Assembly (NCBI RefSeq): GCF_004010195.1
Contig: NC_057760.1
Coordinates: 2,756,647 to 2,796,377, forward strand
Origin: Chiloscyllium plagiosum
Lineage: Eukaryota
Direction: 5' to 3'
Length of the DNA stretch: 39,731 nucleotides
A program made the translations under genes and the position numbers. Below, in pieces: positions 3,465 through 35,712 of the stretch (within the stretch, counting starts at the first letter, position 1; every line of letters starts with the position of its first letter). A model generated the notes under the pieces. The model had not been told where the DNA came from. It worked only from the letters and a program-made list of their open reading frames with translations, and did no database searches.

Positions 3465-3629
3465 CAGAGCTGAAAATGTGTTGCTGGAAAAGCGCAGCAG
3501 GATTCCTGAAGAAGGGCTTATGCCCGAAACGTCGATTCTCCTGTTCCCTGGATGCTGCCTGACCTGCGCTTTTCCAGCAACACATTTTCAGCTCTGATCT
3601 CCAGCATCTGCAGTCCTCACTTTCTCCTC
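3465..3629 (+). mobile_element. Short palindromic non-autonomous element (probable Penelope-like derivative) with hammerhead motif and TSD
   Basis: Perfect 33-bp inverted repeat 3465-3497/3564-3596; 14-bp direct repeat GGAGTCTTTTACAG at 3454-3467 and 3630-3643. Confidence 0.8.
3501..3538 (+). ncRNA. Minimal type I hammerhead ribozyme motif (intact core)
   Basis: gattc CTGAAGA A GGGC-ttat-GCCC GAAA CGTC gattc; predicted cleavage after GUC at 3533. Confidence 0.7.
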
Positions 3630-4457
3630 GGAGTCTTTTACAGCCCAACTCATTCAAAATGTGTAAACTTCCTCCTGACAGAACGGACATTTAAGGTAGT
3701 GAGCACATAGGAATGACGGGATCAATGTGTCCCAGGCTCAGTGTCCAGTCTCTATTGTACTGAGAGCTACAGTCATCAGCAGGAGCAAGAAAGGGTGCAG
3801 TTCGAGTGTCTTGCCTTGGATTGTGAGCTGTGCTGTTAGGAGGTCTTTGTGTGCATTGAGTGAGAACCAAAATGTTTCTTTAAGCTATGCTGCCTCACCT
3901 TTGAATAATACAAGGGCACCCCTTGTCTCAGGTCAAGTGCAAAGAACCTCCAATTGGATGAGGTACCAGAGAGCACCATGAGGGGGCACACTTCATGAGG
4001 GGGCTATAATATACTCCTCCCACCTGCTGGGTGAACGCAGTGTAGTGTTCATAAGGCCAAGGTAGACGTCTTGCTGGTCAGTAGAGATTTTACTTGTTTA
4101 AGGTTGATTGAGGAATCTAAATCTGACAAAAGGTGGCAGATCATTTGAAGAGATGCAGCCTGTAGATTGAGAAGTTACAGGGCAGAAGGACGTCATTGAG
4201 CCTGTTGTCCTTACCAAAACTCTGCAAGTATAACACAGTCCCACTTGCACACCTTTCCCGTGCAAGCTTGTTTTTTTAAAACAAGCACCCATTTTCCTAA
4301 TGAAGCTGGTGACTGAACCTTTCCTCACTGCACTCTGCGTTCTGTCTCCTCCTCACTCTCAGACATAGCTTGTTGCATTGAACCCCTTCCCTAATTCCTC
4401 ATATGCTCACAAAGGAGTGTGTACTGATTTAATTTCTAATTTCTCCATTTTAAACAG

Positions 4458-4590
4458 AAAATCTGATTATTATGAGAAGATTACAGATCCAATTGATCTC
4501 ACAAGTATCGAGAAACAGATCCTCACAGGCCATTATAAGACTGTAGAAGCCTTTGATGCAGACATGCTGAAAGTCTTCAGGAATGCCGAG
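4458..4590 (+). CDS. ASH1L: ASH1L coding exon (bromodomain), first in window; upstream exons lie outside the window
   Basis: Acceptor ttttaaacag|A, donor GAG|gtgagg; translates (after 1 nt) [44 protein letters not shown], matching the ASH1L bromodomain as I recall it; 133 nt. Confidence 0.96.
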
Positions 4591-5321
4591 GTGAGGAAGT
4601 AGTTCTTTACCTTGGTTTGGCAGCTATGACCATTGTTATTGGGAAATAGTCTGCTACCCATTGCATGGTGTCCAGATCATGTAACCTTCACGAGTCACTT
4701 GTTTTCCAATTGCTGTCATGAAGAGTAAAGATTATGTTTATGTTCTCACCCCTCACCCCTTCATCTGAGAATGTGTTGCTTGGCTTAATATCTTGCTGGT
4801 TTTGGGATCTCCAGCCTTGAATTCCCACATCATCAGCTTGTGTTCGGGTCATCTTGTTGAAAAGGACGTTTAAAATGTCATCTGAGACAGCTGGTGCTGT
4901 GGGTACTGAGTGTGTGCACTGACAGTGGGTGCTGTGGTACTGAGCTGTACGTTTCAGGTGATCCTGTCAGGATTAGCTGATCTTCTCCAGGCCAGCTGTA
5001 AAGATGGTCAGGTTCGTTTCAATGCCCTGTGTTAGGAAAAGGAAGTGTTTCTACCCTGGATATCGGTATCAGGTAAGGAACCACTGATGATGCTTTAACA
5101 AATAGTCTCCTGGTGCCATCATGGGCTTGGCCTTCAAGAGAAAATATGATAATTAATTAAAATTATATAAAATAAGTTACTGGGGAAGCAAGCTATAGAC
5201 ATAACTTTCTAGAAGGAAAGGAGGTTGATAATGTTTTGAGTGTGAGCTTGTGGGGATGAAGCATTTGGCGGGGGGGAATGTGAAAGTGGGCATTAAGAGC
5301 TACAGGTCAAGATTGGAGTGG

Positions 5322-5355
5322 GCGGCACGGTGGCACAGTGGTTAGCACTGCTGCC
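5322..5355 (+). mobile_element. 5' head fragment of tRNA-derived SINE (box A region)
   Basis: gcggcacggtggcacagtggttagcactgctgcc matches the 5' end of full SINE copies in the window. Confidence 0.8.
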
Positions 5356-5431
5356 AATGTTTTGAGTGTGAGCTTGTGGGGATGAAGCATTTGGCGGGGG
5401 GGAATGTGAAAGTGGGCATTAAGAGCTACAG

Positions 5432-5590
5432 GTCAAGATTGGAGTGGTGCTGGAAAAGCACAGCAGGTCAGGCAGATTTCTGATGAAGGGCTTTTGCCCG
5501 AAACAGTGATTTCCCTGCTCCTCAGATGCTGCCTGACCTGTGCTTTTCCAGCACCAGTCTAATCTTGACTTTAATCCCCAGCATCTGCCT
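5432..5590 (+). mobile_element. Palindromic Penelope-like derivative with partly degenerate hammerhead motif
   Basis: Inverted arms gtcaagattggagtggtgctggaaaagcacag / ctgtgcttttccagcaccagtctaatcttgac; CTGATGA A GGGC-tttt-GCCC GAAA at 5480-5503; 12-bp TSD AAGAGCTACAGG at 5421-5432 and 5594-5605. Confidence 0.75.
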
Positions 5591-5966
5591 ATGAAGAGCT
5601 ACAGGCTTAGTGAGTTGTGTGGGTGGGGGTAATGGGAGGTAAGTGGGGTTATGGATTATTGGAAAAAGGTCAGGCTTGTGGGCCCTAATGACCTTTTGGA
5701 TTTCTGAGCTTTCTTGTTGACAGTGTTCATGTTGGCAGGTTAATTTGTGGGAGCTCATTAGCCACAACTGGGAGCAGATGCCGGCCCAGCACGTGAGGTA
5801 ATCAGCCAGACATTAAGGCCTTTGGCTGTGATAATGAGATGCCAGGTAAATGGCTTTATGCACAGCACTCTGCAAATACCTCGCAGCTGTGTGGTCAGTT
5901 CACAGAGGTCATTGATGTTAGTGAACTGGCTGTGTGGGTTTTGTGATTTTTTTTAGTATCTGTTTC

Positions 5967-6435
5967 AGAGTCATACAGCATGACAACAGACCCTTTGGTC
6001 CAACTAGTCTACGCTGACCATGTCCCCAAAATAACCTAGTCCCACTTGTCTGCAAATGGGCCATATCCCTCCACACCTTTCCTCTTCATATACTTACCCA
6101 AATGTCTTTTAAAAGTTGTAACTGTGCCTGCAACTATCGTTTTCTTTGGTGGTCTGTTCCACTCTGTGTAAGAAAAAATAGTTGCCCCCATGTCCTTTTC
6201 TCAATCCCCCTCCTCTCATCTTAAAAGATATGCCCCCCTAGTTTTGAACTACTCCACCCTGGAAAGCATCCTTGTCATTCACCTTATCTATGCCCTTCAT
6301 AATTTTATAAACCTCGATAAGGTCATCCCTCAACCTCCTACACTCCAGTGAAAAAAGTCCCAGCCTATTTTTGTAACTCAGATGCTCCATTCCTGGCAAT
6401 ATCCTGGGAAATCTTTTCTGAACCCTCTCCAGCTT
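5967..6435 (-). mobile_element. CR1 (HER1-like) LINE 3' fragment
   Basis: agagtcatacagcatg..acagaccctttggtccaac tail, reverse complement of the + strand copies at 9700-10115 and 22912-23205. Confidence 0.8.
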
Positions 6436-7039
6436 TATATTTAGTAATTTTGTTAAATGTTTGTGCTTTGAAGAATGTTGGTGCTGGGAATGGATTGCTT
6501 TCTTTTGGAAGTCACCTTTTTTGCATTATTTTATCAGTTCAGGTATTGCATGGGGAGATGTATTTACTCAGCCCCATCCAGTGTGTTTTAGCTTCCATCT
6601 TCTGACAGCTCTTCATCCTGCCCTGCTGGGGGAATGTTAAATTGTAATGAGAAGCGCTCCTGGGTTTGAGTGTAATGATTGAGTAGCAGAAGAGAATCAT
6701 TGGGACAAATGGTCTAACTTTGGTTCTAAATCCTGTGGTCTTATGATAACACGGAGTGCTGACAAGAATAGGAAAACATTCTTGGGATCTTGCAAAGTGG
6801 TAAAGACTGAGTTCTCCCTGTCCCAGTGTTGCTCCTGTCTGCAGTTTTCTTCTCTCAATCTTGTGGAAGTGCTGATTCATCAGAACAGTCTAAAAAGACC
6901 CTTTCTTCATAAGCTGGGAGGCTGTTCAATTATTTAAAAATGTTGAAGTTGAGCCTGAGTATCCTGCATCCACTGTCCAACAACATTAGCATCAGGGGCA
7001 AGAATCCTAATTGTTTTGTATTTCTCCCCCAAGTCCTTG

Positions 7040-7115
7040 CTTGATTAGGGACAGCCAACATGGATTTGTGAAGGGTAGATCTTGCCTTACAAGTCTTATT
7101 GAATTCTTTGAGGAG
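7040..7115 (+). mobile_element. CR1 RT fragment
   Basis: Translates LIRDSQHGFVKGRSCLTSLIEFFEE, a typical CR1 RT motif. Confidence 0.8.
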
Positions 7116-7297
7116 AAAGTGAGGTCTGCAGATGCTGGAGATCAGAGCTGAAAATGTGTTGCTGGAAAAGCGCAGCAGGTCAGGCAGCATCCAGGGAACA
7201 GGAGAATCGACGTTTCGGGCATAAGCCTTTCTTCAGGAATCATTATTGAATTAAGCGTCGATACTCCTGTTCCTTGGATGCTGCCTGACCTGCTGCA
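7110..7297 (-). mobile_element. Penelope-like derivative with minus-strand hammerhead motif (7204-7241) and partial inverted arm
   Basis: Reverse complement of 7110-7241 is nearly identical to 3501-3629; minus strand reads gattc CTGAAGA A AGGC-ttat-GCCC GAAA CGTC gattc. Confidence 0.8.
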
Positions 7298-7371
7298 CTC
7301 TCTCCCTAGTTACCCTTTTGTCCTTAATATATTTGTAAAATCCCTTTGGATTCAACTTAATCCTATTTGCC
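7297..7371 (-). mobile_element. CR1 ORF2 fragment abutting the gap
   Basis: ANRIKLNPKGFYKYIKDKRVTRER on the minus strand. Confidence 0.75.
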
Positions 7372-7763
7372 NNNNNNNNNNNNNNNNNNNNNNNNNNNNN
7401 NNNNNNNNNNNNNNNNNNNNNNNNNNNNNNNNNNNNNNNNNNNNNNNNNNNNNNNNNNNNNNNNNNNNNNNNNNNNNNNNNNNNNNNNNNNNNNNNNNNN
7501 NNNNNNNNNNNNNNNNNNNNNNNNNNNNNNNNNNNNNNNNNNNNNNNNNNNNNNNNNNNNNNNNNNNNNNNNNNNNNNNNNNNNNNNNNNNNNNNNNNNN
7601 NNNNNNNNNNNNNNNNNNNNNNNNNNNNNNNNNNNNNNNNNNNNNNNNNNNNNNNNNNNNNNNNNNNNNNNNNNNNNNNNNNNNNNNNNNNNNNNNNNNN
7701 NNNNNNNNNNNNNNNNNNNNNNNNNNNNNNNNNNNNNNNNNNNNNNNNNNNNNNNNNNNNNNN
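7372..7763. other. Assembly gap (392 N)
   Basis: Run of N; flanked by CR1 fragments of opposite orientation. Confidence 1.
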
Positions 7764-8244
7764 GGCCACATTTGGAGTACTATGTGCAGTTCTGGTCGCC
7801 TCATTTTAGGAAAGATGTGGAAGCTTTGGGGAGGGTGCAGAGAAGATTTACCAGGATGTTGCCTGGAATGGAGAATAGGTCATACAAGGATAGGTTGAGC
7901 GTGCTAGGCCTTTTCTCATTGGAACGGAGAAGGATGAGGGGTGACTTGATAGAGGTGTATAAGATGATCAGGGGAATAGATGGAGTAGACAGAGTGTTAC
8001 AAGGGGACATAAATTTAAGGTGAAGGGTGGAAGGTATAGGGGAGATGTCAGGGGTGGGTTCTTTACCCAGAGAGTGGTGGGGGCATGGAATGCGCTGCCT
8101 GTGGGAGTGGTAGAGTCGGAATCATTGGCGAACTTTAAGTGGCAATTGGATAGGTACATGGATGGATACCTAAGCTAGGACAAATGTTCGACACAACATC
8201 GTGGGCTGAAGGGCCTGTTCTGTGCTGTATTGTTCTATGTTCTA
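7764..8244 (+). mobile_element. CR1 LINE 3' end
   Basis: PHLEYYVQFWSPHFRKDVEALGRVQRRFTRMLPGM...LERRRMRGDLIEVYKMIRGID; tail tgttctatgttcta. Confidence 0.92.
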
Positions 8245-8458
8245 GTAAAGGCGCAGAGTTTACAAATCATTGCCCTGGCTCAGATTAGCCAACTGCATGG
8301 AGAATGGGAATTGAGTTTGGGACTTAGTACCTCACTGGGGGAGTGCAGGGCTGAGCTCAAACATTGACAAGATCCCTAGTTAATGTTGACCGTAAATGAA
8401 AATGACGGCTATTCCACTTTGTATTGCTTCTGTACTCATTTAACATTATGCGCTTCAG

Positions 8459-8707
8459 AAATACTACGGCAGGAAGTCTTCCATTGGCAGAGATGTTTGC
8501 CGCTTGAGGAAAGTCTACTACAATGCTCGGCACGAAGCCTCTGCCCAGATCGATGAGATCATTGGGGAGACAGCCAGCGAGGCAGACAGCAGTGAGACGT
8601 CTATTGGTGAGAAGGAAAATGGCAATGAGAAAGATGACGATGTGATTCGTTGCATCTGTGGGCTGTACAAGGACGAGGGACTGATGATTCAGTGTGAGAA
8701 GTGCATG
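8459..8707 (+). CDS. ASH1L: ASH1L coding exon (end of bromodomain, acidic linker, start of PHD finger)
   Basis: Acceptor cgcttcag|AAA, donor ATG|gtaagt; 249 nt: [83 protein letters not shown]. Confidence 0.97.
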
Positions 8708-8796
8708 GTAAGTAACTTTCAGAATTGGGCAGCATCCTGGGGGAATTCAAGTTCCACATGTTTACATTTGGATTTCTGTCTGTCTGTCCAACAGTG

Positions 8797-8989
8797 TGGA
8801 GGTGCCGATGTTGGACTGGGGTGGACAAAGTCAGAAGTCACACGACACCAAGTTATAGTCCAATAGGTTTGTTTTACACCAGAAGCTTTCCGAGTGCCAC
8901 TGACGAAAGGGGTGGTGAAGGGACAGTGCTCTTAAAGCTGGTGATTTCAAATAAACCTGTTGGACTATAACATGATGTCGTGTGACTTT
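8797..8989. mobile_element. Palindromic short element, second family (probable Penelope-like derivative)
   Basis: 40-bp inverted arms 8835-8874/8949-8988 with 4 mismatches; related to 35511-35712. Confidence 0.7.
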
Positions 8990-9699
8990 GTTGTACAGGG
9001 CAGAGTTTCAGGTGACCTGGCAGAAGTCGTAAGAATTTTTTTAATGCATTTATTTAATGTCACATCTTGGGGCTGTCCCAAAGCAAAGCACAGCACATCC
9101 AGTGAATTTTGATTTCCGTTCTGCTCCAGAGCCAGGAGGTCTCTGGTGCCTGGTCCATCAGGAACACTTGATGGAGATTTGGGCAGAGACTTCAGGCACA
9201 GTCCTAATGGACAAAGCTCTTAGTTTGGTGATGTTGACTGACGGGTGATTGTTCGCCAAGATGCAGGGAAGAATGTGGAAAAGTGCATGGATGACCACTT
9301 GAGATATCCTAATATTCAAGGTTATGGAAAAGTGGGATTAATGTAGGTAGGTTGGTGCAGACTCAATGGGCTGAAAGGTCTGTTCTGTGCCGAATGACTA
9401 TGGCTGAGTAAACCCTAAACCCTTGCAAGCCACTGCTCTGCTGAATAATGTAATCTGGACCAAACAAGGAGCTCTTGCCTGTTCACTGTGGGTCAACAGC
9501 ATATTTTCTGCTGATTTTAATTCTCTGGGGGTCATGCATAGCTTTGGAGGTCCCTCATTCAGCTATGAAATTATGTCTTGAGTGGTGTGCGCCTCTATGG
9601 AGATGGCGGTTTGGGATTGAGAGTTAAACAAGCAGAAATTGTAGTTATTGTGAAGTAGCAAGTTAGCCTGGAGCAGTGTTTCTTTAGAGCAGTAAAACT

Positions 9700-10115
9700 G
9701 TGCTGTTTTCCCTGGAGTGTCAGATACTGAGGGGTCACCTTATAGAGGTTTATAAAATCATAGGGACATGGATAGGGTAAACAGACCAAGTTTTTTTCCT
9801 GGGGTGGGGGAGTCCAGAACTAGAGGGCATAGGTTTTAGGGTGAGAGGGGAAAGATTTAAAAGGGACCTAAGGGTGACTTTTTCCACAGAGGATGGTGCG
9901 TGTATGGAATGAGCTGCCAGTGGTGGTGGTGGTGGAGGCTGGTACAGTTACCCATCCAAGATGCCTTTTAAATATTGTATGTGAATAAGGAAGAGGTGAG
10001 CAGGATATGGGCCAAGTGCAGGCAAATGGGAGTAGATTAATGTAGGAAATCTGGTCGGCATGACTGGGTTGGACTGAAGGGTCTGTTTGCATGATGTACA
10101 TCTCTATGACTCTAT
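9700..10115 (+). mobile_element. CR1 (HER1-like) LINE 3' end
   Basis: ctgaggggtcaccttatagaggtttataaaatca (LRGHLIEVYKI, CR1 LRGDLIEVYK-type motif); tail ctctatgactctat. Confidence 0.85.
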
Positions 10116-11371
10116 AACTAGACCAGAGCCACTTGTGTGTGTTGATGAGTTCTTGTGCTGGTTAACACCCAGCAGACCATTCTTTTCACAAAAAGACTGA
10201 TGCCTGTTATTGCAAAGTGTGTAGAGAGATGTGTAGTCTGCAAACTGAGATTTAAACAAAGTTCGCAACATCCACAGTTGTGAATACCACTCAAAACTCT
10301 TGTCAGAAGGTACAGTTAAATCACTCAAGCCTTGTTATGACAACTCAGACCAACGGGAGAGGAATAAAAGCCCATTCATTTGCACTTAGTCTTCAGGCAA
10401 TCGAGTCAGCAGCTGCAGTTCAGTGTGTAAATGGTGAATGGAAGCAACATGCAGAATCGGGCAATTTGCCAGTCAGCTAAGAATAGTTACAGACCTGGAT
10501 TTTCACCTCCAGTTACATGGATGAAGCTTTCGTATCTGGTAAAATTCAGGCAAATTTTCCAAATGCCTTGGCAGTGTTCCTAGTGGGTAAAGGTATGGTG
10601 TCTGGATATTGACAGTGGCAGTCTAGTCCATTTTTCACCAGCTCCATGCTGTCGGTGTAAATAGTCTCTGCACCAGATATACTTGTGGGAAATTTGGGCA
10701 CATTTCAGAAACTTTCATGATGAACAAAGCTAGAGTGCACGGATGCTGAAGGTGGATCGCTAGGCCACAGTGGATAAACCTGTAAAAGCACTTCCATTCC
10801 ACTGCTTGGTATATGGTATTAAGTTATAAAAGTAGGGTGCAAGTTAAAGGTAGAGTTGCTGTAAAAGGAGCTGTCAGAGAGTTAGAGTTGTACAGCACAG
10901 AAGCAGTCTCTTTCGTCTGGCTCGTCTGTCAGTTCTGATCACCTAACCAGAGAATAGAATTGAATTGCCCTTGAGGTGGAATAAACTTGTCTAAGTTGAA
11001 TTGCCTCCTGCTATTCCTAGGAGATACAGTAATAAACAGCAAAATTGGTTCTTGCTTCAGGAATTAGACTTGTACAGCAAGTTTAAAAAAAGTTGAACTT
11101 GCTTCCATTTGGAGATTTTTGAGTCTTTCAAATTTGAGAAAATTAATTTGAAGCGAATTGTCCAAATACGAGGAGATCAAAATTAAGAATGAGGCATCAA
11201 ATTGGACTAACCTTTTAATATAGAAGCTGATACGCTTAAGCTGTAAGAAGGTCTTTGAGGTAAGAGGAATGAGTCTGTTTCTGGTGACTGTAATGATAGA
11301 CAGCTACTTGCATCTTGTCCTTGTTAAATAAATGTAGTGATGTTGAATTGGGCGGGGGGGGGGGGGGGGAT

Positions 11372-11673
11372 GTGCAGCACAGTGGGCTCAGTGGTTAGCG
11401 CTGCTGCCTCACAGCACCAGGGACCCGGGTTCAATTCCAGCCTCGGGCAACTGTCTGTGTGGAGTTTACACCTGCTCCCCGTGTCGGTGTGGGTTTCCTC
11501 CCATAGTCCAAAGATGTGCAGGTTAGGCAAATTGGCCATGCTAAATCGCCCATAATGTTAGGTGCCTTTGTCAGGGGTAAACTTAGGGGAATGGGTCTGG
11601 GTGGGTTGCTCTTCAGAGGGTCGGTGTGGACTTGCTGGGCCAAAGAGACCTGTTTCCATGCTGTAGAGAATCT
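11372..11673 (+). mobile_element. tRNA-derived SINE (HE1/V-SINE type)
   Basis: Box A-like cagtggttagc, box B ggttcaattcc, V-domain tgtgtggagttt...gggtttcctccca, CR1-like tail. Confidence 0.9.
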
Positions 11674-11779
11674 TAAAAAAAAAACTGGGTGGTCTATAGG
11701 TTCCTGTGCGTTGTGCTGTATTTTGTACTTGTTTATTCTAACCTCCTCTCCTCTCTTCACCCCCCACCCCGCCCACTAG

Positions 11780-11866
11780 GTGTGGCAGCACTGTGACTGC
11801 ATGCGTGTAACTGCAGATGTTGAGCACTACCTGTGTGAGCAGTGTGATCCTCGACCTGTGGAGAGG
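11780..11866 (+). CDS. ASH1L: ASH1L coding exon (PHD finger, second half)
   Basis: Acceptor cccactag|GTG, donor AGG|gtaagt; 87 nt: [29 protein letters not shown], completing the C4HC3 PHD pattern. Confidence 0.96.
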
Positions 11867-12329
11867 GTAAGTCAATCCCTTGTGAATAACAAAAGGTGTT
11901 GTGCATTCTGGTTAACAACATTGGCCACAGCAGTCAGCCCGGGCCTCTTTGTTTAGGCTTATGTGCTGTGCCTTTCAGTGCATTAACAGCACTGTTTCCT
12001 AATGGATGGTTAAACAGCTTTGGGCATTTCACTTAATTGTACGCAGTTACATTCCTGCAAATCCTGTGTTGTGAACATTTTCTGGGAAGTTTCAGCTGTG
12101 GTATCAAATGTCAGTAATGCTGCTGCTCATCAGTGGCTGCCCCGGTTGCTGGACATATTGCCACTGGAGAGTCATCCAGACCAGAGGATCCTGATGTTGC
12201 TGCCACCTTGCACTCCACTGATCTTAGTGACAGGGGGGGGCCATTGCAGCTGGAGTCCCAAACCTGAGTAGACAAATGTCACAAAACAAAAGCAACCCAG
12301 CCTTCCAGGTTATGGCAGCAAGAGTCAGC

Positions 12330-12541
12330 ACTCCCCTGAGAGGCTGATGGTGACATTAGTCAAATCAATTGGTAGATTCATTTAAGATGCATCTGGACAG
12401 ATGCATGAGTCGGTGGGGAGTAGAGGGATACAGATGCTTAGGAATTGACCGACAGGTTTAGACAGTACATTCGGATCGGCTCAGGCTTGGAGGGCCAAAG
12501 GGCCTGTTCCTGGGCTGTAAATTTTCTTTGTACTTTGTTCA
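12330..12541 (+). mobile_element. CR1 LINE 3' tail fragment
   Basis: catttaagatgcatctggacag...ggagggccaaagggcctgttcctgggctgta tail. Confidence 0.65.
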
Positions 12542-12648
12542 AATCCTTAAACAATGCCCATTTGCTCCTTTTTTCTCCCCCGTGGCCACTGCTGGTCCAT
12601 AAGTAGCCACTGTCTGTTCTGTGACTCACTATTGCTGTTTCTCTACAG

Positions 12649-12739
12649 GAAGTCCCCATGATCCCACAGCCACATTATGCCCAGCCTGGTTGTGTGTACT
12701 ACATCTGCCTTCTGCGGGATGACCTGCTGCTCCGACACG
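12649..12739 (+). CDS. ASH1L: ASH1L coding exon (PHD-BAH junction)
   Basis: Acceptor ctctacag|GAA, donor G|gtaggt; 91 nt: [30 protein letters not shown] + 1 nt. Confidence 0.96.
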
Positions 12740-13578
12740 GTAGGTGGATGCTGGGGAGAATGGCCTTACTCACGTGCCTTCATGTGAGAAGCTGATAGCA
12801 TTCCTGACATACACACACACATGTATCTTCAGAAAAGTAACAAAACACAAACCCCAGTTGGCATATATTCCATTGAAATGTTGTATTAATGTTGGGCTGG
12901 ATATCAGGTACTTGGGGTTAAGAAGACTGCCGTAACAGGTGTTTGCATGGAAGTAAAATCCAGCACGATAGTCATTACTTATCAGCTCAGCTACTCTAAT
13001 ACAGCTCTCTTTTCACTGCTACCCATTAACAATCCACCATTTGGTGCTGCACCTCTTTCTCCTTGGGCTGGCTTGTCTCCTGGTGCAATGATCAAATCAG
13101 TAGGGGAAGAAATGGAAAGCTTGCCAGTGCTTTATGTTGGTCATTGTACGGTTAGAGGGGGCTAAACTCTAACTTCACATGAAGTTTGGGGGGGGTGGGG
13201 GGGGGTGGGGGGGAAGAAGACACTGTCAGCACATTGGACCAGTATTCTGTTTGGATGTGCAGACAGTGTGTGAAACATTTACACTCAACAAATACGGTTC
13301 CAGCAACACTTTTTTAACAGCTTGCTTTCAACTCGTTGAAACATCTCAGTATAACACTGGGCATATCAGCAAAGTGACCAAAGGAAAGAGATTGGTTGTT
13401 CTGCACAGCTTAAGTATTGGTGACAATTGTTTCCCATGAGCACCAACTTTAATCTTTAACCTTAGTCAAAACATAAATGTGGAAACCTTTCTAAGTTGAC
13501 GTGGAAATCACCAAGGAATTTTAAATTTTGTACCTTTGCTCCACTCTTCTGATCAACTCGGTATATGTTCTGCTGCAG

Positions 13579-13717
13579 GTGACTGTGTCTATCTGATGAG
13601 AGACAATCGGCGAGGGCCTGAGGGCCAGCCTGTCCGACAGTCCTACAGACTGCTCTCGCACATCAATCGTGACAAGCTCGATATCTTCCGTATTGAAAAG
13701 CTCTGGAAGAACGAAAA
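13579..13717 (+). CDS. ASH1L: ASH1L coding exon (BAH domain)
   Basis: Acceptor tgctgcag|GT, donor AA|gtaagg; 139 nt: (G)[45 protein letters not shown](K). Confidence 0.96.
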
Positions 13718-13792
13718 GTAAGGCAGCTGCAGGATCAACTACATAATGCAAACTTGTAAAATGGCTCCTGAACCGCAGTGACCTGGGCACTT

Positions 13793-14540
13793 CCCCAGTG
13801 TTACACAGTGACAGACCTGTCCCCCACCAGCACTGTACCCCAGTGTTACACAGTGACAGACCTGTCCCCATCCAGTACTGTACCCCAGTGTTATACAGTG
13901 ACAGACCTGTCCCCACCAGTACTGTACCCCAGTGTTATACAGTGACAGACCTGTCCCCACTCAGTACTGTACCCCAGTGTTATACAGGGACAGACCTGTC
14001 CCCCACCAGTACTGTAACCCTGTGTTACACAGTGACAGACCTGTCCCCACCAGTACTGTACCCCAGTGTTATACAGGGACAGACCTGTCCCCCACCAGTA
14101 CTGTACCCCAATGTTATGCAGGGACAGACCTGGCCCCACCAGTACTGTATCGCAGTGTTGTACAGTGGCGACCTGTCTCCACCAGTACTGTACCCCAGTG
14201 TTACACAGTGACAGACCTGTCCCCACCAGTACTGTACCCCAGTGTTATACAGGGACAGACCTGGCCCCACCAGTACTGTATCGCAGTGTTGTACAGTGGC
14301 GACCTGTCTCCACCAGTACTGTACCCCAGTGTTACACAGTGACAGACCTGTCCCCACCAGTACTGTACCCCAATGTTATACAGTGACAGACCTGGCCCCA
14401 CCAGTACTGTATCGCAGTGTTGTACAGTGGCGACCTGTCCCCACCAGTACTGTACCCCAGTGTTACACAGTGACAGACCTGTCCCCACCAGTACTGTATC
14501 GCAGTGTTGTACAGTGGCGACCTGTCTCCACCAGTACTCT
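13793..14540. repeat. Minisatellite, 43-45-bp unit, about 17 copies
   Basis: Unit ccccagtgttayacagtgacagacctgtccccaccagtactgta; one degenerate unit continues after the insertion at 14668-14710. Confidence 0.97.
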
Positions 14541-14544
14541 ACTC

Positions 14545-14664
14545 CTGATGAAGGGCATTTGCCTGAAACGTCGATTTTCCTGGTCCTCTGATGCTGCCTG
14601 ACCTGCTGTGGCTTTCCCACACCACGCTCTCGATTCTAATCTCTAGCATCTGCAGTCCTCACTT
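14545..14664 (+). mobile_element. Penelope-like derivative with hammerhead core, inserted in the minisatellite end
   Basis: CTGATGA A GGGC-attt-GCCT GAAA CGTC gatttt at 14545-14578, then the family tail gatgctgcctgacctgctg...agcatctgcagtcctcact. Confidence 0.75.
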
Positions 14665-14928
14665 GCACCCACCAGTTCTGTTCCCCAGCATTATACAGTG
14701 ATAGGCTTGTGTACACTGGTACCACATTTGAAAATATTCTGTCCAGACACAGCCTAAGTTTGGAAGAGCGTGTCCTCAAATTGTACAGCTAAGCTTATTT
14801 CCCCAGTTGAAGTCTGAAACTAACGTGCGTTTGCCATCACCTTTTACTGGTGCGGTATTTTGCTGCCTATATGTTATTTTGAAATTCCATTTTGCTTGAT
14901 GTCATGATAATCTCTATTGTTCTGACAG

Positions 14929-15101
14929 AGGGGAGCGATTTGCCTTTGGTCATCATTATTTCCGACCCCATGAGACCCATCACTCCCCTTCAAGACGGTT
15001 TTACCATAACGAGCTATTCAGGGTGCCTCTGTACGAGATTATCCCTCTGGAGGCAGTGGTTGGAACCTGCTGTGTGTTGGACCTCTACACCTACTGTAAG
15101 G
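14929..15101 (+). CDS. ASH1L: ASH1L coding exon (BAH domain)
   Basis: Acceptor tctgacag|A, donor G|gtgagt; 173 nt: [57 protein letters not shown](G). Confidence 0.96.
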
Positions 15102-15915
15102 GTGAGTGAAATTTTAGTCTCTAAGCCTTTTCACCCCTGTCCCTGTCCCTGTCCTGCTAGTTTCCCACCACTGTTGATGTCACCTTTTGTGCTAGCTGTT
15201 GAACACTGAATGGTTCAAGATGGTGTGAACCTCCCCCAGTCAGTGCCCTTCGTGATTTCTTCTGTTACCTCCCTGACCCAGGGGTTCTCCACACCTGAGC
15301 ATGGAACCCAGGCTTAAATTCACTTGGAGTGCACACCAAAGGTTAGCACCACAGCTCCCTGGATCATGATCAAAAGTTGGAATCCAAGCTGTTTATAATA
15401 CCCCTAACTCTGCACATCCTGGGGGTAAGCTCTGCCCCTTTACGTAGAGTTGGGCAACATTTATGAACGTAGACTTTATCGTGCATGTCTGCATTGTTGT
15501 TTAGCATCTACACATACCACCTCCCATTCCTCTTCATGTCACTCCACCAGCATATCCCTTTATTCCTTTCTGTTTGCTGTGTGTCCAGCATTCCCCTTCG
15601 GTGCATCTCTGCAATTCAACTTAATAGTAGTGTGGTCAGGAGTTCCACATTCTCAGCACACCCTGGGTGAAGTGGTTTCTCCTGAACTCCCAATTTATTA
15701 GTTCGTCTTTTTTTTTAACCTTTTGTCGCCTTTTAAAGGAATTTCTGAAAGTCACCACTGAATGTGAGTAGAAGTTTACCCTGTCATGAGAAGGTGTGAA
15801 AGCCAGCCGTGCCCTGCCCTAAGCTTTGTTAGAGGGTTAGCTGTGGTGAAGTTTTGTGCTGGAGCTTGTAACTGCACTGTTAATGCACTCTCACCTTTCC
15901 CTTTTGATGGTTTAG

Positions 15916-16082
15916 GGAGGCCAAAGGGTGTGAAAGACCAGGATGTTTACATCTGTGACTATCGCCTGGATAAATCTGCACATCTCTTCTATAAGATCCA
16001 CCGGAACCGCTATCCTGTCTGCACAAAATCCTACGCATTCGATCACTTTCCGAAGAAACTGACACCCAAAAGAGATTTCTCT
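15916..16082 (+). CDS. ASH1L: ASH1L coding exon (end of BAH domain)
   Basis: Acceptor ggtttag|GG, donor TCT|gtaagt; 167 nt: [55 protein letters not shown]. Confidence 0.96.
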
Positions 16083-16595
16083 GTAAGTGTTAATGGTGGG
16101 ATTGTTGCTGGCCGGGGGTGGGGGGGATGGATCAGAAGGGATTCAGGGGTAGGTGTCGGGTGAGCTCCTGGTGAGGGAGAGCAAGTGAAGGAAATGAATG
16201 CTTCAGTTTGTAGTTGGTTTGTTAACCTGTTGTGTACACTGCTGCTGCTACACGGTTAGGTTATACCCTCTGTCTGCCCCTTTTTCCATATGAGCCCCTC
16301 CTGCACCCTCTGCCAAATTGGAGAGCTGACCAGTCGTTTTGCCATTTGCAGAAAGAAGCACTGTTGGGAAATTAAGGTGCGGGGCCCCTAGCTTCACTTC
16401 AGGCAATTGCTCAAGGCCCTGGCAGCAGAGAGGCCAGGGTGATGACATGCATGGCAGAGGAAAGTGAGCCCTGAGAGGCTGGGCGGTGGGATGGATGAAG
16501 CCTGATGGAAAGGAGTGTTGTTGTGCCTAGTCATAATTTTTAAACCAAAATCTGCTTTTTGTTTTCTTCTTCTTCTGCTGTTTACTTTCCATTAG

Positions 16596-16848: not shown

Positions 16849-17186
16849 TAGGATTCATAGAACCCCTACAGTGTGGGGACAGGCACTTCGGCCCAGCAAG
16901 TCCACTCTGACCCTCTAAAGACTAACCCACCCAAACCCATTCCCTACCCTATTATCCTATATTTGCACCTAACCTATACATCCCTGAACACAATGGGACA
17001 ATTTAGCATGGCCAGTTCACCTAACCTGCACATCTTTGGATTGTGGGAGGAAATTGGAGCACCCGGAGGAAGCCCATGCAGGCACTGGGAGAATGTGCAA
17101 ACTCCACACAGCTAGTCGCCCAAGGGTGGGATCGAACCCGGGTCCCTGATGCTGTGAGGCAGCAATGCTAACCACTGAGCCACCGT
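16849..17186 (-). mobile_element. tRNA-derived SINE (HE1/V-SINE type)
   Basis: Reverse complement of the SINE head (acggtggctcagtggttagca...gggttcgatccc), V-domain and tail. Confidence 0.9.
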
Positions 17187-21727: not shown

Positions 21728-21968
21728 AAAACCGAGTGCTGGTCAGTCTCAGCAGGTTGGGCTGTATCTGTGGAGAGAGAAATAGCATTAATGTTCCAAG
21801 TCCAATATGACTTTGGTTTGGCACTGAGTTTGTTTTGGACTGCACATTGGTGCAGAATAGAGTTGAACTGAGATTGTGAATGAGCTCTGCTTCTCTACCA
21901 CAGATGATGCCAGACTTGCTGTGTTTCTCCAGCACTTTGTCTTTATTTCAGATCTCCAGCATCCATAG
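21728..21968. mobile_element. Decayed palindromic Penelope-like derivative
   Basis: Inverted arms agtgctggtcagtctcagcaggttggg..atctgtggagagag / ctctaccacagatgatgccagacttgctgtgtttctccagcact; tail gatctccagcatc. Confidence 0.55.
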
Positions 21969-22067
21969 GACTTTGTTTTTGTGGATAAATAAACACAGTG
22001 TTTAATCCTGTAAATACATGCCTGGTCTGGTTCACTTTCTAGTCCGTGATAATCCCCAGTGGATCCA

Positions 22068-22165
22068 AGACAGAAATAGCTGGAAAACCTCAGTGGGTCT
22101 GGCAGCATTGTGGAGCTGGAGAACCAGAGTCCATGTTTCAAGTCTGGTGACCCTTCTTCAGAATC
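22068..22165 (-). mobile_element. Penelope-like derivative with degenerate minus-strand hammerhead motif
   Basis: Minus strand CTGAAGA A GGGTC-acca-GACTT GAAA CATG at 22161-22132. Confidence 0.6.
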
Positions 22166-22174
22166 ATTCATAGT

Positions 22175-27837: not shown

Positions 27838-28132
27838 GGGGTGGCAGGGTGGCACAGTGGTGAGCTTTGCTACCTCAGAGCACCACGCTCCCAGGTTTGA
27901 TTCCAGCCTTGGGTGACTGTGTGGAGTTTGTACATTCTCCCCGTGCCTGCGTGGGTTTCCTCCGGGTGCTCCGGTTTCCTCCTGCAATCCAAAGATGTGC
28001 GAGTCACGTGAATTGCCCGTAGTGTTAGGTGCATTAGTCAGAGGGGAAATGGGTCTGGGTGGGTTACTCTTCGGAGGGTCGGTATGGACTGGGTGGGCTG
28101 AAGGGCCACTGTAGGTAATCTGATCTAAATCT
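27838..28132 (+). mobile_element. tRNA-derived SINE (HE1/V-SINE type)
   Basis: gggtggcagggtggcacagtgg head, V-domain, tail gtaatctgatctaaatct. Confidence 0.9.
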
Positions 28133-28231
28133 TGCAAGTCTCTCTCTACCAAGTTTGGATTGACTGTGAGGACCATGAACAATACAGGTATTGTCCCCAA
28201 GTTTGATGTAGCAAAATGCCAGTTACTATAT

Positions 28232-28541
28232 GATTAGATTAGATTACTTACAGTGTGGAAACAGGCCCTTCGGCCCAACAAGTCCACACCGACCTTCCGA
28301 AAAGCAACCCACCCAGACCCATTCCCCTACACCTAACACTAGGGGCAATTTAGCATGGCCAATTCACCTAACCTGCACATCTTTTGGACTGTGGGAGGAG
28401 ACCGGAGCACCCGGAGGAAACCCACGCAGACACGGGGAGAATGTGCAAACTCCACACAGACAGTCGCCCAAGGTGGGAATTGAACCTGGGTCTCTGGCGC
28501 TGTGAGGCAGCAGTGCTAACCACTGTGCCACCATGCCACCC
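28232..28541 (-). mobile_element. tRNA-derived SINE (HE1/V-SINE type), near full length
   Basis: (gatta)n tail at 28232, V-domain, head ending at 28541. Confidence 0.92.
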
Positions 28542-28679
28542 ACAACATATATATTCACCTCCTTCAGGCAAGGTTCCCACTCCTGATCACTATCTGTTGA
28601 GAAGCTATCAGGAGGTGTGGTTTAGCGGTTCAGAGTTCTCCTATGCTTTATTCCTGGCTTTGACTCCAAGGTAAAGAAT

Positions 28680-30130: not shown

Positions 30131-30249
30131 ATGAATTGTGACACGTCCCATGGCGATTTTCAGAGAATAATAGGAAAATGGATATCTATGTCCTGTCCCT
30201 CAACTAGTATCAATCAAAAAGTGATTTGCCAATGTTTTCTGTGGAGCAT

Positions 30250-31955
30250 AGCAACCAGAGTCTATGGAACTATTCAGTCCATTGAGTCTGCTCCACCATC
30301 CAGTTAATTGTGAATGATCATCTGTCCTTTGATACCAATTAGTGACCAGAAGTTTCTCAATTTCTATCTTGAATATGTTCTTTGACCTTCCACAGATCTC
30401 CACAGCACAGAATTCTAAAGATTCACGGTCCCCTGAAAAATAATGCCGCCTCATCTTAGTCTCAAAACCCCTTATCCTGAGATTGCATCTCCTGATTTTA
30501 GACTCTGACTAGGGGAAGCTATCAATATCATGGTTTGTAAGCTTCATCAGGTGATCTCGTTCTTCAATACTCTGCAGAGTCCAGATTCTGTCTCCTCAGT
30601 CTCTTACGACAATTTTACTATCCCAGGATTAACTTGGTGAATCTCTGTTCCACTCCCTCTGTGCCAGGTGTATCCCTTAGATAGGAGAACCAAAATTGAA
30701 CGCAGTACTCCAAATATGGTCTCACCAAAGTTCTGTGTAACTGCAGCAAGACATCTTTACCCTGTCCTAAGATCTCCCTTCAATGGTTCATGAACAAGAG
30801 CAAAGCGTTCTTTTCCCCAACCTCTCGTTATCTAAGATGTATTCTGCCTTTGTCTTGTTGCTGCCAAAGTGAAACATTTAACTCTTCTTCACATGTTCAT
30901 GAAGCCTCCTCGCCTCATCCTTAAAAACTTGTAATATTTGCACAGTGCCTGGGAATACAATTGGGTCACACAGCCATATCATTTACATAGATTGTCATTG
31001 GTTGTGGACCAAGCACTGATCCTTGCAGTACCCTCTGCTAGTAACAGCCTGCCACTCTGAGAATTATCCATTTATTCCTGCCCTCTGTTAACCAATTTTC
31101 ACTCCATGTAGAGATATTCCCCCAGTTGCATGGACAACCTTTAGTCTGGTTAACATGACAAGCATTGCATCTTCACTAATGCCAATTTCTTTAAGTTCTT
31201 TACTTTCAAGAGTCCCCTGGTCACCATTGTTTCTCAAGAGTTTTTCTGCACTGATGTATGGAAAGTAACTATTTAGTTCCTCAACTATTTCCCTGTTCTC
31301 AACGATAAATTCTCCCGACCCTATGTGTAATGGGTCTACATTTCTCCTTGCTAATCCTTTCCTTTTGTACATAGATAAAGAAGCTCTTAAAGTCCACATT
31401 TTATGTTCCTTATTTGTTTGTATTCAAAATTTCTGGGTTTTGTTTAGTCAGGTTCTTCGTCTTCCTTAGGGTTCGAAATTGCATCCAATCCTCAGGCTTA
31501 CTCTCTTTCTGGCTTTCTTACCCACCATTTCCTTTTAATTTAGTACAGTCTTTACCTAAATGTTGATTTACCTTTGTTCCTTTGGGTGTTCAGGCCTTAG
31601 AGGAATATGTATCTGTTGTAAATCATATAGCTTCTCCTCTTCAAATATTCGCCATTGCCTTTCGACTTCCAAACCTATAGTGTATTTTCCTGATGAAGAG
31701 CTTATGCTCAAAATGTCGACTCTTTCACTGCCTGACCGGCTGTGTTTTTCTAGCGCCATACTTTTTGACTATAGTGTATTTTTCCAATCCACCGTAGACA
31801 CCTCAGACCTTGATAATATCTCATTTTCCAGTTGAAAACCCTAGTTTCAGAATGAACTGTATTTCCTGATGTGAAGTTCCATCATGTTATGGTCATTATT
31901 TCCCAAAGAGCACTGCACAGCCGAGTTATTAATTAGCCCTCTCTCATTACACCTT
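30250..31955 (-). mobile_element. Old CR1 LINE, fragmented
   Basis: Minus-strand LEYCVQFWFSY-type motif near 30680-30720; ORF 31088-31399 GEFIVENREIVEELNSYF. Confidence 0.7.
31689..31768 (+). mobile_element. Truncated Penelope-like derivative with CpG-decayed hammerhead and 14-bp TSD
   Basis: CTGATGA A GAGC-ttat-GCTC AAAA TGTC at 31690-31717; CTATAGTGTATTTT at 31675-31688 and 31769-31782. Confidence 0.7.
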
Positions 31956-32612
31956 AGAGTCATAGAGATGTAGAGCATGGAAACACCCTTCGGTCCAACC
32001 TGTCCATGCCGACCAGATATCCCAACCCAGCTAGTCCCACCTGCCAGCACCCGGCCCATATCCCTCCAAACCCTTCCCATCCGTATGCCTTTTAAATGTT
32101 GCAGTTGTGCCAGCCTCCACTTCCTCTGGCATCCGCCCATTGAGTCATCAATGGAGTTAAGTACAAATGTGAAATCTCACTTTGGGGTTCTTAGACTGTT
32201 AGCATAGCTCTTGGTTATCTTTCCATGCACGCACCACCCTCTGTGTGAAAAAGTTGCCCCTTAGGTCTCTCTTATATGTTTCCCCTCTCACCCTAAACCT
32301 ATGCCCTCTATGCCCTGACCCCAGGGAAAAGACTTTGTCTATTTGCCCTATCAATGCCCCTCATGATTTTGTAAACCTCTATAAGGTCACCCCTCAGCCT
32401 CTGACCTCCAGGGAAAACAGCTTTAGCCTCTCCCTATAGCTCAAACCCTCCAACCCTTGCAACATCCTTGTAAATCTTTTCTGAACCCTTTCAAGTTTCA
32501 CAACATCTTTCCGATAGGAAGACCAGAATTGCACGCAATATTCCAACAGCGACCTAACCACTGCCCTGTACAGCTGCAACATGACCTCCCAAATCCTGTA
32601 CTCAATACTCTG
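31956..32612 (-). mobile_element. CR1 (HER1-like) LINE 3' end containing a foreign 96-bp insert
   Basis: IEYRIWEVMLQLYRAVVRSLLEYCVQFWSSYRKDVVKLERVQKRFTRML on the minus strand; agagtcatagag tail. Confidence 0.9.
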
Positions 32613-32714
32613 TACTCGATCCTTAAAGGGTTCCTCCACACGCTGCTCCAGGAGCTCATCATCCACACAATGAGCATAATTATAGTTTCTACATAGAAAC
32701 AGTAAATGCATCTT

Positions 32715-33610
32715 TCATGAAGAGCAGGAGTAGGCCAGTCAGTTTTGCCAGTTCATGAGATCGCTGGTGATCTCTGGCCAAACTCCATGTACCTTCCTTT
32801 GGCCCATATCCCTTAATACCTTTGCTTAACAAGAAATCCATGTCAGATATTGAAAGTAACAAGTGATCTAGCATCAACTGCCACTTGAGAGTGTTCCAAT
32901 CTTTGTGTGTGGAAGTGCTTCCTAACATCTCTCCTGAAGACTTTGTCCCTAATTCTCAGACAGTGGCACCGAGATCTGGAATCTGCAGCCAGTGGAAAAC
33001 GTTTATCCTTATCAACCCTGTCTTTTCCTGTTAATATCTTGAAGGCTTTGATCAGATCACCCCTTAACCTTATAAATTTGAGGGAAAACTAGCCTCATTT
33101 GTACAATCTCTCCACAGAAGCCCTGGAGTCCAATTGTCATTCTTGTAAATCTACATTTGTGCTCCCTTCAAGGCCATTATATCTTTCTGAAGGTGTCCTG
33201 CCCAGATCTATGCTCAGTGTTCCAAGTGGGGTCTAACCAGAGTTTTGTATAACTGCAGCAAATCTTTCACATTCTAGTATTCCAATCTTTTAGATGTAAA
33301 AGCCAGCATTCCAATAGCTTTCTTGATTATTTTCTACACCTGTTCATGGTATTTTCAAGATCTATACCCCTCAGCCCCTGGGTTTCTTTGGGCATCCAAC
33401 TGCATACAATTGAGCAAATATCCTGATCAGTCTTTACTCTGTCCAGCACGGATAATCTCACACATGCTTACATCGAACTTTATCTGCCACAGTTTTGTGC
33501 ATTCACCTAGTCTGTCAATATCCCTTTATAATTCTATGTCTATCGTGTTGTCTAACTTTGACGCCAGCAAATTTGGATGTATGACTTTCTCAGCTGTTAT
33601 CCATCCAAGT
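32715..33610 (-). mobile_element. Old CR1 LINE 3' portion
   Basis: agcaggagtaggcca tail; minus-strand LYKTLVRPHLEH motif near 33215-33255. Confidence 0.7.
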
Positions 33611-33803
33611 TGTAAAGGGTTTTATATTGTGTAAGGCCATATACAAACCTAATCCTTTCTAAATCTCTTGTTTCCAGTTTGAGCTGCCTATAATTCAGCC
33701 TTAAGTGATGCTATGTAAGCTTTTATATGTCTTTCCAAGATACTCATTCGTTGCTTATATTATTATGGAAGCTTTTGACAATGATGTCCCAACCTCCCAT
33801 TTA

Positions 33804-33881
33804 TCTCTCTCTCTCGCGCTCTCTCCCTCTCTCTTGCGCTCTCTGTCTGTCTCTCTCTCTCTCTCTCTCGCGCTCTCTCTC
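33804..33881. repeat. Interrupted (CT)n microsatellite
   Basis: Directly visible, with GCGC and GT interruptions. Confidence 0.9.
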
Positions 33882-34878
33882 CTGGGCTCTCTTAGTCTCC
33901 TGCTTCACTCAAATCTCACCTGATCCTTCAAACAAGTTGCCAATGCATGGAGACTATTGAGTCATGACGAGGGTTAGGAATACAGAGCTGCGCACAGATC
34001 TGCAGTTGTGGTCAAGAACTGGATCCCAAGCTGAATCATCGTCGCACACCTTTGGCCGATTGCACAGTTCTCACCTGAGTAGGAAGAGGAAATTCTGTAA
34101 ATCAAACGAGGGTCTTCATTGACTTGGCTAAGTATGACATCCGCCCATTGAGTCATCAATGGAGTTAAGTACAAATGTGAAATCTCACTTTGGGGTTCTT
34201 AGACTGTTAGCATAGCTCTTGGTTATCTTTCCAGGGATGTTTAAAGGTTAGTTCTTAATAACCTGCTATTCTTTTAAACACTGACAGGATATGTTTGAAA
34301 CAACTGCAAGAGATAAGGATTATGACGTTTAACGGGTGGTACATGGTTCTAAGCATGGTATTGGATAACAAATAGAAACCACTGTAATTGGGTTTCTTTG
34401 GAAGATTTTGAAGTATTGTACCCTGGTATCCCCTCTTGTCACGTATGTGATTCTAAAGTTCTTCTGTTCATTTTCCAGGGCTTTGAGGGGAGAGGTGAGA
34501 AGTGATAGAGGAATGAGTAGCTGGCAGTGAGGAGCAGACAGAGAGGTGCTACCCAAGAAGCCAGGCCAATGGGTGCCAAGGAGGTGCCCCAAAAGAAGCC
34601 ACCGTCACTGTAGTTTAGTGAGCTTCAAAAAAAAAAGACGAGGCCATGCGGAGATGGAAGAGAAAGGTTTGGATAATGTGGAGATGGTTGTGAGCTGCGG
34701 AGAGGGGATGTGAATGCTCGCACTGAAATGTCATCTTGCCCGTTCCGTGAGTGAATTTCAGGACGTGCCTGGACTTGGCACAGATCTGGCTGGAGCAGCG
34801 AGGAGACATTCATGGGGTGTTCAAAAACCCAAGTAAACACATTGATGGTGGTGGGGCTCCAGTGGCACAGCAGTGACA

Positions 34879-35078
34879 AGAGTCATAGAGATGTACAGCA
34901 TGGAAACAGACCCTTCGGCCCAACCCGTCCACGCCGACCAGATATCCCAACCCAATCTAGTCCCACCAGCCAGCACCCGGCCCATATCCCTCCAAACCCT
35001 TCCTATTCATATACCCATCCAAATGCCTCTTAAATGTTGCAATTGTACCAGCCTCCACCACATCCTCTGGCAGCTCAT
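34879..35078 (-). mobile_element. Young CR1 (HER1-like) 3' tail
   Basis: ELPEDVVEAGTIATFKRHLDGYMNRKGLEGYGPGAG on the minus strand plus tail. Confidence 0.9.
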
Positions 35079-35510
35079 AGAGCACAGTGTGTTGTAATGG
35101 TGATGCACATTGGTTAGACACCACCTGGAGTTTGGTCTCCACGTCAGCTGAAAATGAATTCCAGCTAGCCTTGGGATGACGCAAACAAATTTACCAGAAT
35201 CCTCCAGTTATAAGGCTATGACCTTCAGGACATCTCAAACTGAAGAAAGAACATGGGAACTAGTAGAGATTTTTAATATTATGGAAGCATTTGGCAGGCT
35301 TAGCGAACAAGTTTCACTTGTGGCTGAACCCAAAATTGGGGCAGATATGTAAGAGTGTCAAATTCAATTGGGAATTTGGGAGAAATTCCTCCACCCAGAG
35401 GGGGACCCGCTTCTGCAGGGAGTGGGTGGGCAAGAATGGGGGATTCACTTCTGCAGGCTGTGGGGGAGGCAAATAACAGAAATATTGAAGGGGCAACAAA
35501 AATAATTTCA

Positions 35511-35712
35511 ACAAAGTTAAAAGTCTCACAACATCAGGTTATAGTCCAGCAGGTTTAATTGGAAGCACTTTGCTTTCAGAGCAGTGCTCCTACATGAGGT
35601 GGTTGTGGAAGGAGCTAGTGCTTCCGATTAAACCTGTTGGACTATAACCTGGTGCTGTGTGATTTTTAACTTTGTACAATCCAGTCCCAACCCCCGGCCT
35701 TTCCAAATCATG
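35511..35712. mobile_element. Palindromic short element, second family (probable Penelope-like derivative)
   Basis: 59-bp inverted arms 35511-35569/35617-35675 with 6 mismatches; decayed minus-strand hammerhead ctcatgt-A-GGAGC-act-GCTCT-GAAA-GC. Confidence 0.75.

Follow-up and report, generated by a model that had tools for sequence, protein, structure and literature searches.

Short hammerhead-bearing elements in a shark genome are leader pieces of three Penelope-like element families

Penelope-like elements (PLEs) of metazoans are known to carry minimal hammerhead ribozymes in their repeats (Cervera and De la Pena 2014, PMC4209133). We analysed a stretch of 39,731 nucleotides (nt) from the shark Chiloscyllium plagiosum (assembly GCF_004010195.1, NC_057760.1, positions 2,756,647 to 2,796,377; the window), for which a preliminary description had listed seven short hammerhead-bearing elements, and followed these elements through the genome. 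They are like the published PLE hammerheads in having a type I core, an extra unpaired base before helix II, a G10.1-C11.1 pair, a palindromic 15.2-16.2 segment and a short helix I. They also share the occurrence of thousands of solo copies, with some close opposite-strand pairs and many consensus families with compensatory changes. Helix II differs, with 4-5 base pairs (bp) here, as does abundance, with ~140,000 cores here against 4,000-9,000 for coelacanth and Xenopus. The text and searchable supplements of PMC4209133 do not name sharks, and treat solo motifs as truncated PLEs without a fixed 5' boundary.

Three other systems are close. [quoted passage not shown] Poseidon of Anolis carolinensis (Frangieh et al. 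2024, PMC11167929) is comparable in that the tail is flanked by two internal priming sites, cutting and extension affect both target strands, and the hammerhead lies near the start of the open reading frame (ORF), is dispensable for insertion and has no RNA ends at its cut site. Poseidon belongs to another PLE clade without the zinc linker and its ORF begins inside the hammerhead, whereas the ORF here begins 162 nt after C3 of the core; the accessible part of that paper does not describe cap-ended leader-only insertions. Finally, metazoan retrozymes lacking long terminal repeats (non-LTR retrozymes; PMC7229834 and preprint 10.64898/2026.07.22.740005, the latter reporting retrozymes in one chondrichthyan) likewise have a type I hammerhead, non-coding short copies and kinship with PLEs. 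Retrozymes form head-to-tail repeats of 150-450 bp, typically with canonical hammerheads, and are expressed as circles, whereas the short copies here (stubs) are single or head to head, with hammerheads of the minimal kind and in continuity with a PLE ORF. Assignment to that class is not supported, head-to-tail hammerhead repeats of 150-450 bp not being found in the window or among the first 100 copies.

Both the presence of hammerheads in PLE ends and the insertion layout seen here are already published, and a claim to a new ribozyme element does not stand. Open in the literature, as represented by PMC8557442 and PMC11167929, are how PLEs make inverted, tailed insertions and what their hammerhead does. 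A literature search, with Repbase, Dfam and most subscription journals outside its reach, returned no paper on these families, no description from a shark and no cap or strong-stop model for PLEs.

Link to Penelope-like coding sequence

The hammerhead elements are leader (pseudo-LTR) pieces of three endonuclease-bearing PLE families. Some copies continue upstream across ~230 nt that are non-coding and enter an ORF at its end, and the tail follows in sense within 700 nt downstream in 24 of 30 loci fetched by an endonuclease-region pattern. Hammerhead end and ORF are joined without a gap at loci L062 and L199. At the other end of the ORF, the tail runs into further leader and then an ATG 162 nt after C3 in 12 of 30 loci fetched by an N-terminal pattern (family A). 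Since the tail is joined to both the end and the start of the ORF, the 'element' is the 5' leader of a PLE, repeated 3' as a pseudo-LTR (pLTR). The hammerhead-bearing repeat thus stands at both ORF ends as a partial tandem (L320 and L332 are such tandems); for families B and C it was seen on the 3' side only.

The parent ORF was pieced together from several broken copies. The coding sequence of L052 and its neighbours shows RT motifs, a linker of the form C-x4-C-x2-C and, together with CCHH, a GIY-YIG domain. A DKG motif lies upstream, and the RT is of PLE type (DKG, YIDD) with GIY-YIG at the C terminus. RVT_1 was the sole Pfam match of the L052 protein, the GIY-YIG domain being recognised by motif and on relatives. 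A search returned 48 longer relatives, the best at 47-49% identity, many of them annotated as RT and some as GIY-YIG, and no named reference PLE protein; a PDB sequence search with the PLE protein gave nothing significant. The CX2-5CxxC zinc linker between RT and endonuclease and the CCHH motif are present as defined in PMC8557442, and under the definitions given there the protein sequence places the parent among endonuclease-bearing PLEs of Neptune/Nematis type. That the elements are PLEs is almost certain.

Family B is joined without a gap to its own linker and endonuclease in L360, a link also present in L112 and L357, and family C is joined to an endonuclease end in L157, across a nested insertion. 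Other candidates for a family B-ORF link (L115/L116 and L106) were rejected, as family A-like pieces lie beside or inside the B arms. The preliminary description had offered derivatives of Penelope terminal repeats as one option, and the joins to PLE coding sequence in families A, B and C bear this out. The autonomous partner it envisaged was located, with RT and GIY-YIG on the family A end and endonuclease ends for B and C. Its other option, non-autonomous ribozyme-carrying or retrozyme-like elements, is not supported: copies are single or head to head, without tandem monomers, and junctions vary by locus. Assembly gaps are very frequent inside or next to long PLE copies (loci L276-L305 and L001-L030), so long and tandem copies are probably under-assembled.

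The seven window copies had been taken for one family. They fall into three: A (3506, 5480, 7236 and 14545, with subfamily A' at 31690), B (35598) and C (22161). Genome-wide, where all figures are pattern matches and not copy numbers, a relaxed core pattern gave 139,507 matches against 117 for the reversed control, and the three families together amount to ~140,000 cores. The exact 30-mer around 3506 matched 29,143 times, the family B pattern (35598, 8900) 14,133 times and the family C pattern (22161) 1,223 times; exact ORF patterns matched 270-823 times against the 29,143 of the short-end 30-mer. A strict descriptor (CTGAnGA-N-stem of at least 4 pairs-GAAA) matched four times in the window against a mean of 0.045 over 200 shuffles, and 24 times in 421 kb, made up of the window and 40 stretches of 10 kb, where 0.8 were expected. 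Hammerhead-like families with a longer helix II (CTGAGGA-T and CTGATGA-T types) occur at L066, at L081 and nested in L360 (~1050-1190); these are probably other PLE families.

Boundaries and anatomy of the stubs

The anatomy of family A was read from the first 100 exact matches on contig C1 (first 8.9 Mb). Relative to C3, 70 of these copies start 1-8 nt before it, four start at 9-30 and 26 further up; extensions above 30 nt were partly inflated by runs of N and self-matches, hence only the class 'longer than 30' was used. The density of ends is ~50-fold lower upstream of -8 (70 in 8 nt versus 4 in 22 nt). A second sample held 124 gap-free copies chosen by their 3' part alone and enriched for long copies. 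Here -4 is the commonest junction downstream of -100, with 12 copies, 10 of which have a preceding G. In long copies, the base at -5 is C in 70 of 73 and G in none. Genome-wide, ATTC is preceded by G in 3,017 cases and by A or T in 2,016, the background share of G being 0.30.

Family B has its boundary at A-8, preceded in the first 100 by 68 G, 23 T and 9 A (hand count). Among its first 30 loci, G stands in 21 of 23 short copies, and seven of the eight T cases are long copies (two judged by eye). RNA reads of run X19 (2,168 reads, poly(A) single-cell) rise ~sevenfold in depth at the same boundary base and include 99 varied loose ends. Full-length L1 insertions bear an extra G, that of the cap (PMC11702581), and an internal promoter is known from Penelope (PMC2377424). 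The 5' boundary with its extra G likely marks a capped transcription start, and most stubs would thus be leader-only cDNAs.

The 3' ends are bimodal: 58 of the 100 copies end at +74..+105 (most at +86..+97), 38 at +122..+128 and four elsewhere, and the one-sided tail is ~36 nt. An inverted arm is present in 45, of which 40 combine one long and one short arm. Duplications of at least 10 bp flank 55 copies, 44 of them with 12-16 bp, and it is within duplications of 12-16 bp that the long-plus-short palindromes lie. Inverted 5' copy, one-sided tail and target-site duplication are thus all found in these copies, none of which has a same-strand neighbour within 500 nt.

Two further arrangements were seen. 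In a family B palindrome (L381/L382, G000:C1:22812384-22812429) both arms start at A-8 with an extra G, two bases apart. At 11 loci (L307, L310, L314, L315, L319, L323, L325, L328, L330, L333 and L334), N-terminal pieces of the ORF are fused directly to the hammerhead leader. The ORF pieces vary in length, the leader starts at -4 to -13, and the extra G is present in two. These fusions look like template jumps after leader copying.

The hammerhead and the copies in the window

The layout of the CTGAnGA-stem-GAAA type is indeed present at all seven listed positions, as inspection of the window confirms. The core and helix II are intact in one of the seven only, at 3506. The 7236 copy has G10.1 changed to A, which breaks the first helix II pair; the 10.1-11.1 pair is G-U at 14545, U16.1 is lost at 5480 and the ACGU self-pair at 22161. 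At 31690, where GAAA had been listed, the letters are AAAA, and the core at 35598 has two changes. The three target duplications reported earlier are exact: 14 bp (3454/3630), 12 bp (5421/5594) and 14 bp (31675/31769). Two copies had been overlooked: ~8787-8995 holds a palindrome of family B, and ~21878-21985 a family C piece without a core. The features are as follows.

3454..3467 and 3630-3643: 14-bp target-site duplication, left and right, of the next stub
3468..3629, + strand: stub of family A; a short arm in inverted orientation (3468-3501) that ends at the ~+90 site, and a full leader arm 3502-3629, with A-4 at 3502, G before it at 3501 and its end at the ~+126 tail end; 91.6% identity across 143 nt to the leader of the ORF-bearing copy L332
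3502..3537, + strand: minimal type I hammerhead, the sole intact one in the window, predicted from sequence, haplotype table and folding; core 3506-3512, helix II 3514-3525, GAAA 3526-3529, helix III reduced to a self-complementary stub, cut predicted after 3533
5433..5593, + strand: older family A stub with decayed core; inverted arm 5444-5475 (BLAST); 12-bp duplication 5421-5432 / 5594-5605
7110..7299, - strand: leader arm of family A (7240-7110), its A-4 preceded by G; an inverted piece lies apart at 7253-7299; 10 bp are repeated between 7096-7105 and 7243-7252 (read by eye)
8444..16088, + strand: host gene, ASH1L-like, represented by two coding stretches, a bromodomain/PHD part at ~8456-8710 and a later part at ~15912-16082
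8787..8995, no strand assigned: palindromic stub of family B, decayed, with 81-88% to the reference of that family
14541..14668, + strand: older stub of family A with one arm, placed where a 44-bp minisatellite ends; an 11-bp duplication (1 mismatch) is possible, though ambiguous within the minisatellite repeat
21878..21985, + strand: coreless decayed tail piece of family C/A type, boundaries by eye
22066..22166, - strand: family C stub with one arm, stem and core decayed; a duplication was looked for and none found
31689..31768, + strand: subfamily A' stub, helix II GAGC/GCTC, broken core; 14-bp duplication 31675-31688 / 31769-31782
35511..35710, - strand: family B palindromic stub with decayed core; short arm 35612-35511, tailed inverted arm 35613-35710; a duplication was looked for and none found

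The family forms fit the minimal type I hammerhead of PLE repeats (PMC4209133), with the extra base before helix II and G10.1-C11.1. Helix III is reduced to a self-complementary ACGU (A and C) or AGCU (B), and helix I has 3-4 pairs, beginning at the putative start in families A and C. On folding, the minimum is favoured by 1 kcal/mol over a partial monomer fold with helix II and two helix I pairs, and the duplex formed by helix III is weak, at -3.1 and -4.5 kcal/mol. Such predicted weakness of helix III and of the monomer is as expected for a ribozyme that is dimer-dependent or protein-assisted, of the kind treated in PMC6765202 and PMC11167929.

Four helix II variants had been read as covariation. 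The GAGC/GCTC pair is a true compensatory subfamily, GAGC pairing with GCTC in 34 of the first 100 copies against 2 of 97 for GGGC (hand counts). Since all 34 share one subfamily background, this is one real compensatory event. GACTT, GCTCT and GCCT, in contrast, are C-to-T decay of GACCC, GCTCC and GCCC, and three of the four variants represent decay or separate families. Other subfamily changes lie mainly in loop II and position 7. Between families, structure-keeping changes comprise ACGU versus AGCU and helix I variants, again few independent events. Selection for structure in the active parents, as had been proposed, is likely: the helix II swap and the between-family changes in helices I to III argue for it, on few independent events.

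Copies do not pile up at the predicted cut site (1 of 124 at +28; 3 of 124 ends at +27..+30), nor do RNA ends in X19, a poly(A) single-cell run ill-suited to small or circular RNA. We rejected the possibility that the stubs are copies of hammerhead-cut RNA, given the 3 of 124 ends at +27..+30; the stubs derive from uncut RNA.

The ASH1L-like exons are matched by ASH1L structures at 8456-8710 (E 6e-48) and 15912-16082 (E 7.9e-34), and the stubs sit in the non-coding DNA around them. The window also holds copies of a repeat headed by a tRNA and resembling a short interspersed nuclear element (SINE), presumably HE1, at 11385-11645, 17035-17184, 27847-28107, 28264-28532 and 37532-37839, two of them head to head at 27847-28532. 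Minisatellites occupy 13793-14542 (44 bp, 17 copies), with the 14545 stub at its end, and 39182-39731 (32 bp, 16.7 copies); no hammerhead lies within a tandem array in the window. Near-perfect local duplications at 5234-5321/5360-5447 (88 bp) and 32127-32225/34135-34233 (99 bp) are either recent or assembly artefacts. Broken reading frames at 282-734(-), 7361-8023, 36414-36944(-) and 38180-39180 look like what we take to be fragments of CR1/L2-type long interspersed nuclear elements.

Origin of the stubs

Most stubs were probably made by the element's RT copying only the first 95-130 nt of its own capped RNA. A ribonucleoprotein would nick both target strands ~14 nt apart, and the RT would start at ~+90 or ~+126, inside the 5' leader; the two 3' ends would correspond to the internal priming sites known from anole Poseidon. 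After 95-130 nt the enzyme would reach the capped 5' end and copy the cap, giving the extra G, with A-4 (family A) and A-8 (family B) as putative transcription starts. The leader cDNA could then be joined to the target or to another cDNA made on the opposite strand, or jump back into ORF RNA, as the 11 fusions suggest. Palindromes would form where both nicked strands prime cDNA and the two cDNAs are joined head to head. The published palindrome model (PMC3846280) is self-priming on an antisense template, whereas the long/short arm rule and the G at arm starts here point to two sense-templated cDNAs. Each stub would be a dead-end product, and long copies would need priming within the read-through 3' repeat. 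The hammerhead, which would take up the initial ~32 nt of this RNA, is predicted to act only as a dimer or with protein help. As uncut RNA is the source of the stubs, cutting would serve to regulate or process the parent RNA and not to produce stubs.

Several observations weigh against this capped, leader-only origin. The 26 of 100 copies that extend past -30 need read-through or another template, and four of the 11 fused leaders retain 9-13 upstream bases, so that the boundary is not absolute. The G is often common to the target site or to a G-rich inverted arm, and microhomology therefore adds to the G excess; the share of G before A in the inverted arm is 0.5. A G-ATTC start is found in none of 10 gap-free ORF-bearing 5' ends. 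The X19 reads resemble host read-through and support a genomic boundary, not a transcript start, and no pile-up of transcription starts is seen in these poly(A) single-cell reads. The 100-copy sample comes from a single 8.9-Mb stretch, counts some palindromes by both arms and required the core. No intact full-length ORF was present among the loci examined, and an Rfam search of the window returned no hammerhead at E <=5, only chance microRNA-like hairpins and a sub-threshold U6 match.

The same PLE origin could also yield stubs by ordinary, heavy 5' truncation of cDNA primed in the 3' pLTR, with the RT stalling at the hammerhead fold or the endonuclease cutting the newly made DNA at ATT just ahead of the core. 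Strong 5' truncation of PLE insertions is on record (PMC8557442). Near the ORF-pLTR junction the anole Poseidon endonuclease favours ATT (PMC11167929), a triplet that family A shows at -4..-2; the G is missing from many ends at -1..-3, and some fused leaders reach -9..-13. We nevertheless consider this origin unlikely: truncation does not account for a G that departs from the master sequence and stands, in each of two families, at one fixed position, family B has no ATT at its boundary, and the ~50-fold drop in end density upstream of -8 also speaks against it. Still less probable is that the stubs, all or some, propagate themselves as SINE-like or retrozyme-like non-autonomous elements with their own internal promoter, copied by the PLE enzyme. 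Their very high number relative to ORF matches (29,143 versus 270-823), the retention of the likely start site and priming sites in every stub, and the internal promoter known in Penelope (PMC2377424) would fit such a cycle. So would a CTGT loop subfamily seen as short copies only among the few copies examined, and the preprint 10.64898/2026.07.22.740005 derives animal retrozymes from pLTRs. Against this, the main loop variants are present in long copies, junctions and arm order differ from locus to locus, and the sole recurrent junction also occurs in another subfamily. Same-strand neighbours within 500 nt and hammerheads in tandem arrays, as noted above for the first 100 copies and the window, are lacking. 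Moreover, a few bases of the ORF-side leader are included in some stubs, and ORF pieces occur fused to leaders, which argues that the template included ORF RNA.

The palindromic form of 45 of the 100 copies is what miniature inverted-repeat DNA transposons with chance hammerhead-like termini would offer, an explanation to which we give next to no weight. The arms are unequal, duplications range from 10 to 17 bp, 55 of the 100 copies have no inverted arm, and the sequence is continuous with the RT-GIY-YIG ORF. Linkage to the ORF and variable duplications refute a DNA transposon; equal terminal inverted repeats and a short duplication of fixed length were not found.

Leader-only copying of capped RNA might be one face of a wider scheme, which we regard as doubtful. 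PLEs would copy the leader first, and this cap-ended 'strong-stop' cDNA would be inserted alone (~70% of copies), be paired with another such cDNA from the opposite nicked strand (the palindromes) or jump back onto RNA (the fusions); the hammerhead cut would decap the message at its 5' end and leave a 32-nt repeat at the 3' end able to receive the jump. Strand transfer after copying of the cap found no support, G being present in none of 73 long copies. If true, the scheme would amount to a retrovirus-like strand transfer, explain the pLTRs and give the ribozyme a role.

The value of these elements lies in mechanism, the ~140,000 stubs being a base-level record of where copying starts and ends. 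A sharp prediction follows, namely that the RNA begins 4 nt upstream of the core in family A and 8 nt upstream of it in family B. Ribozyme scans of such genomes will be swamped by dead PLE stubs.

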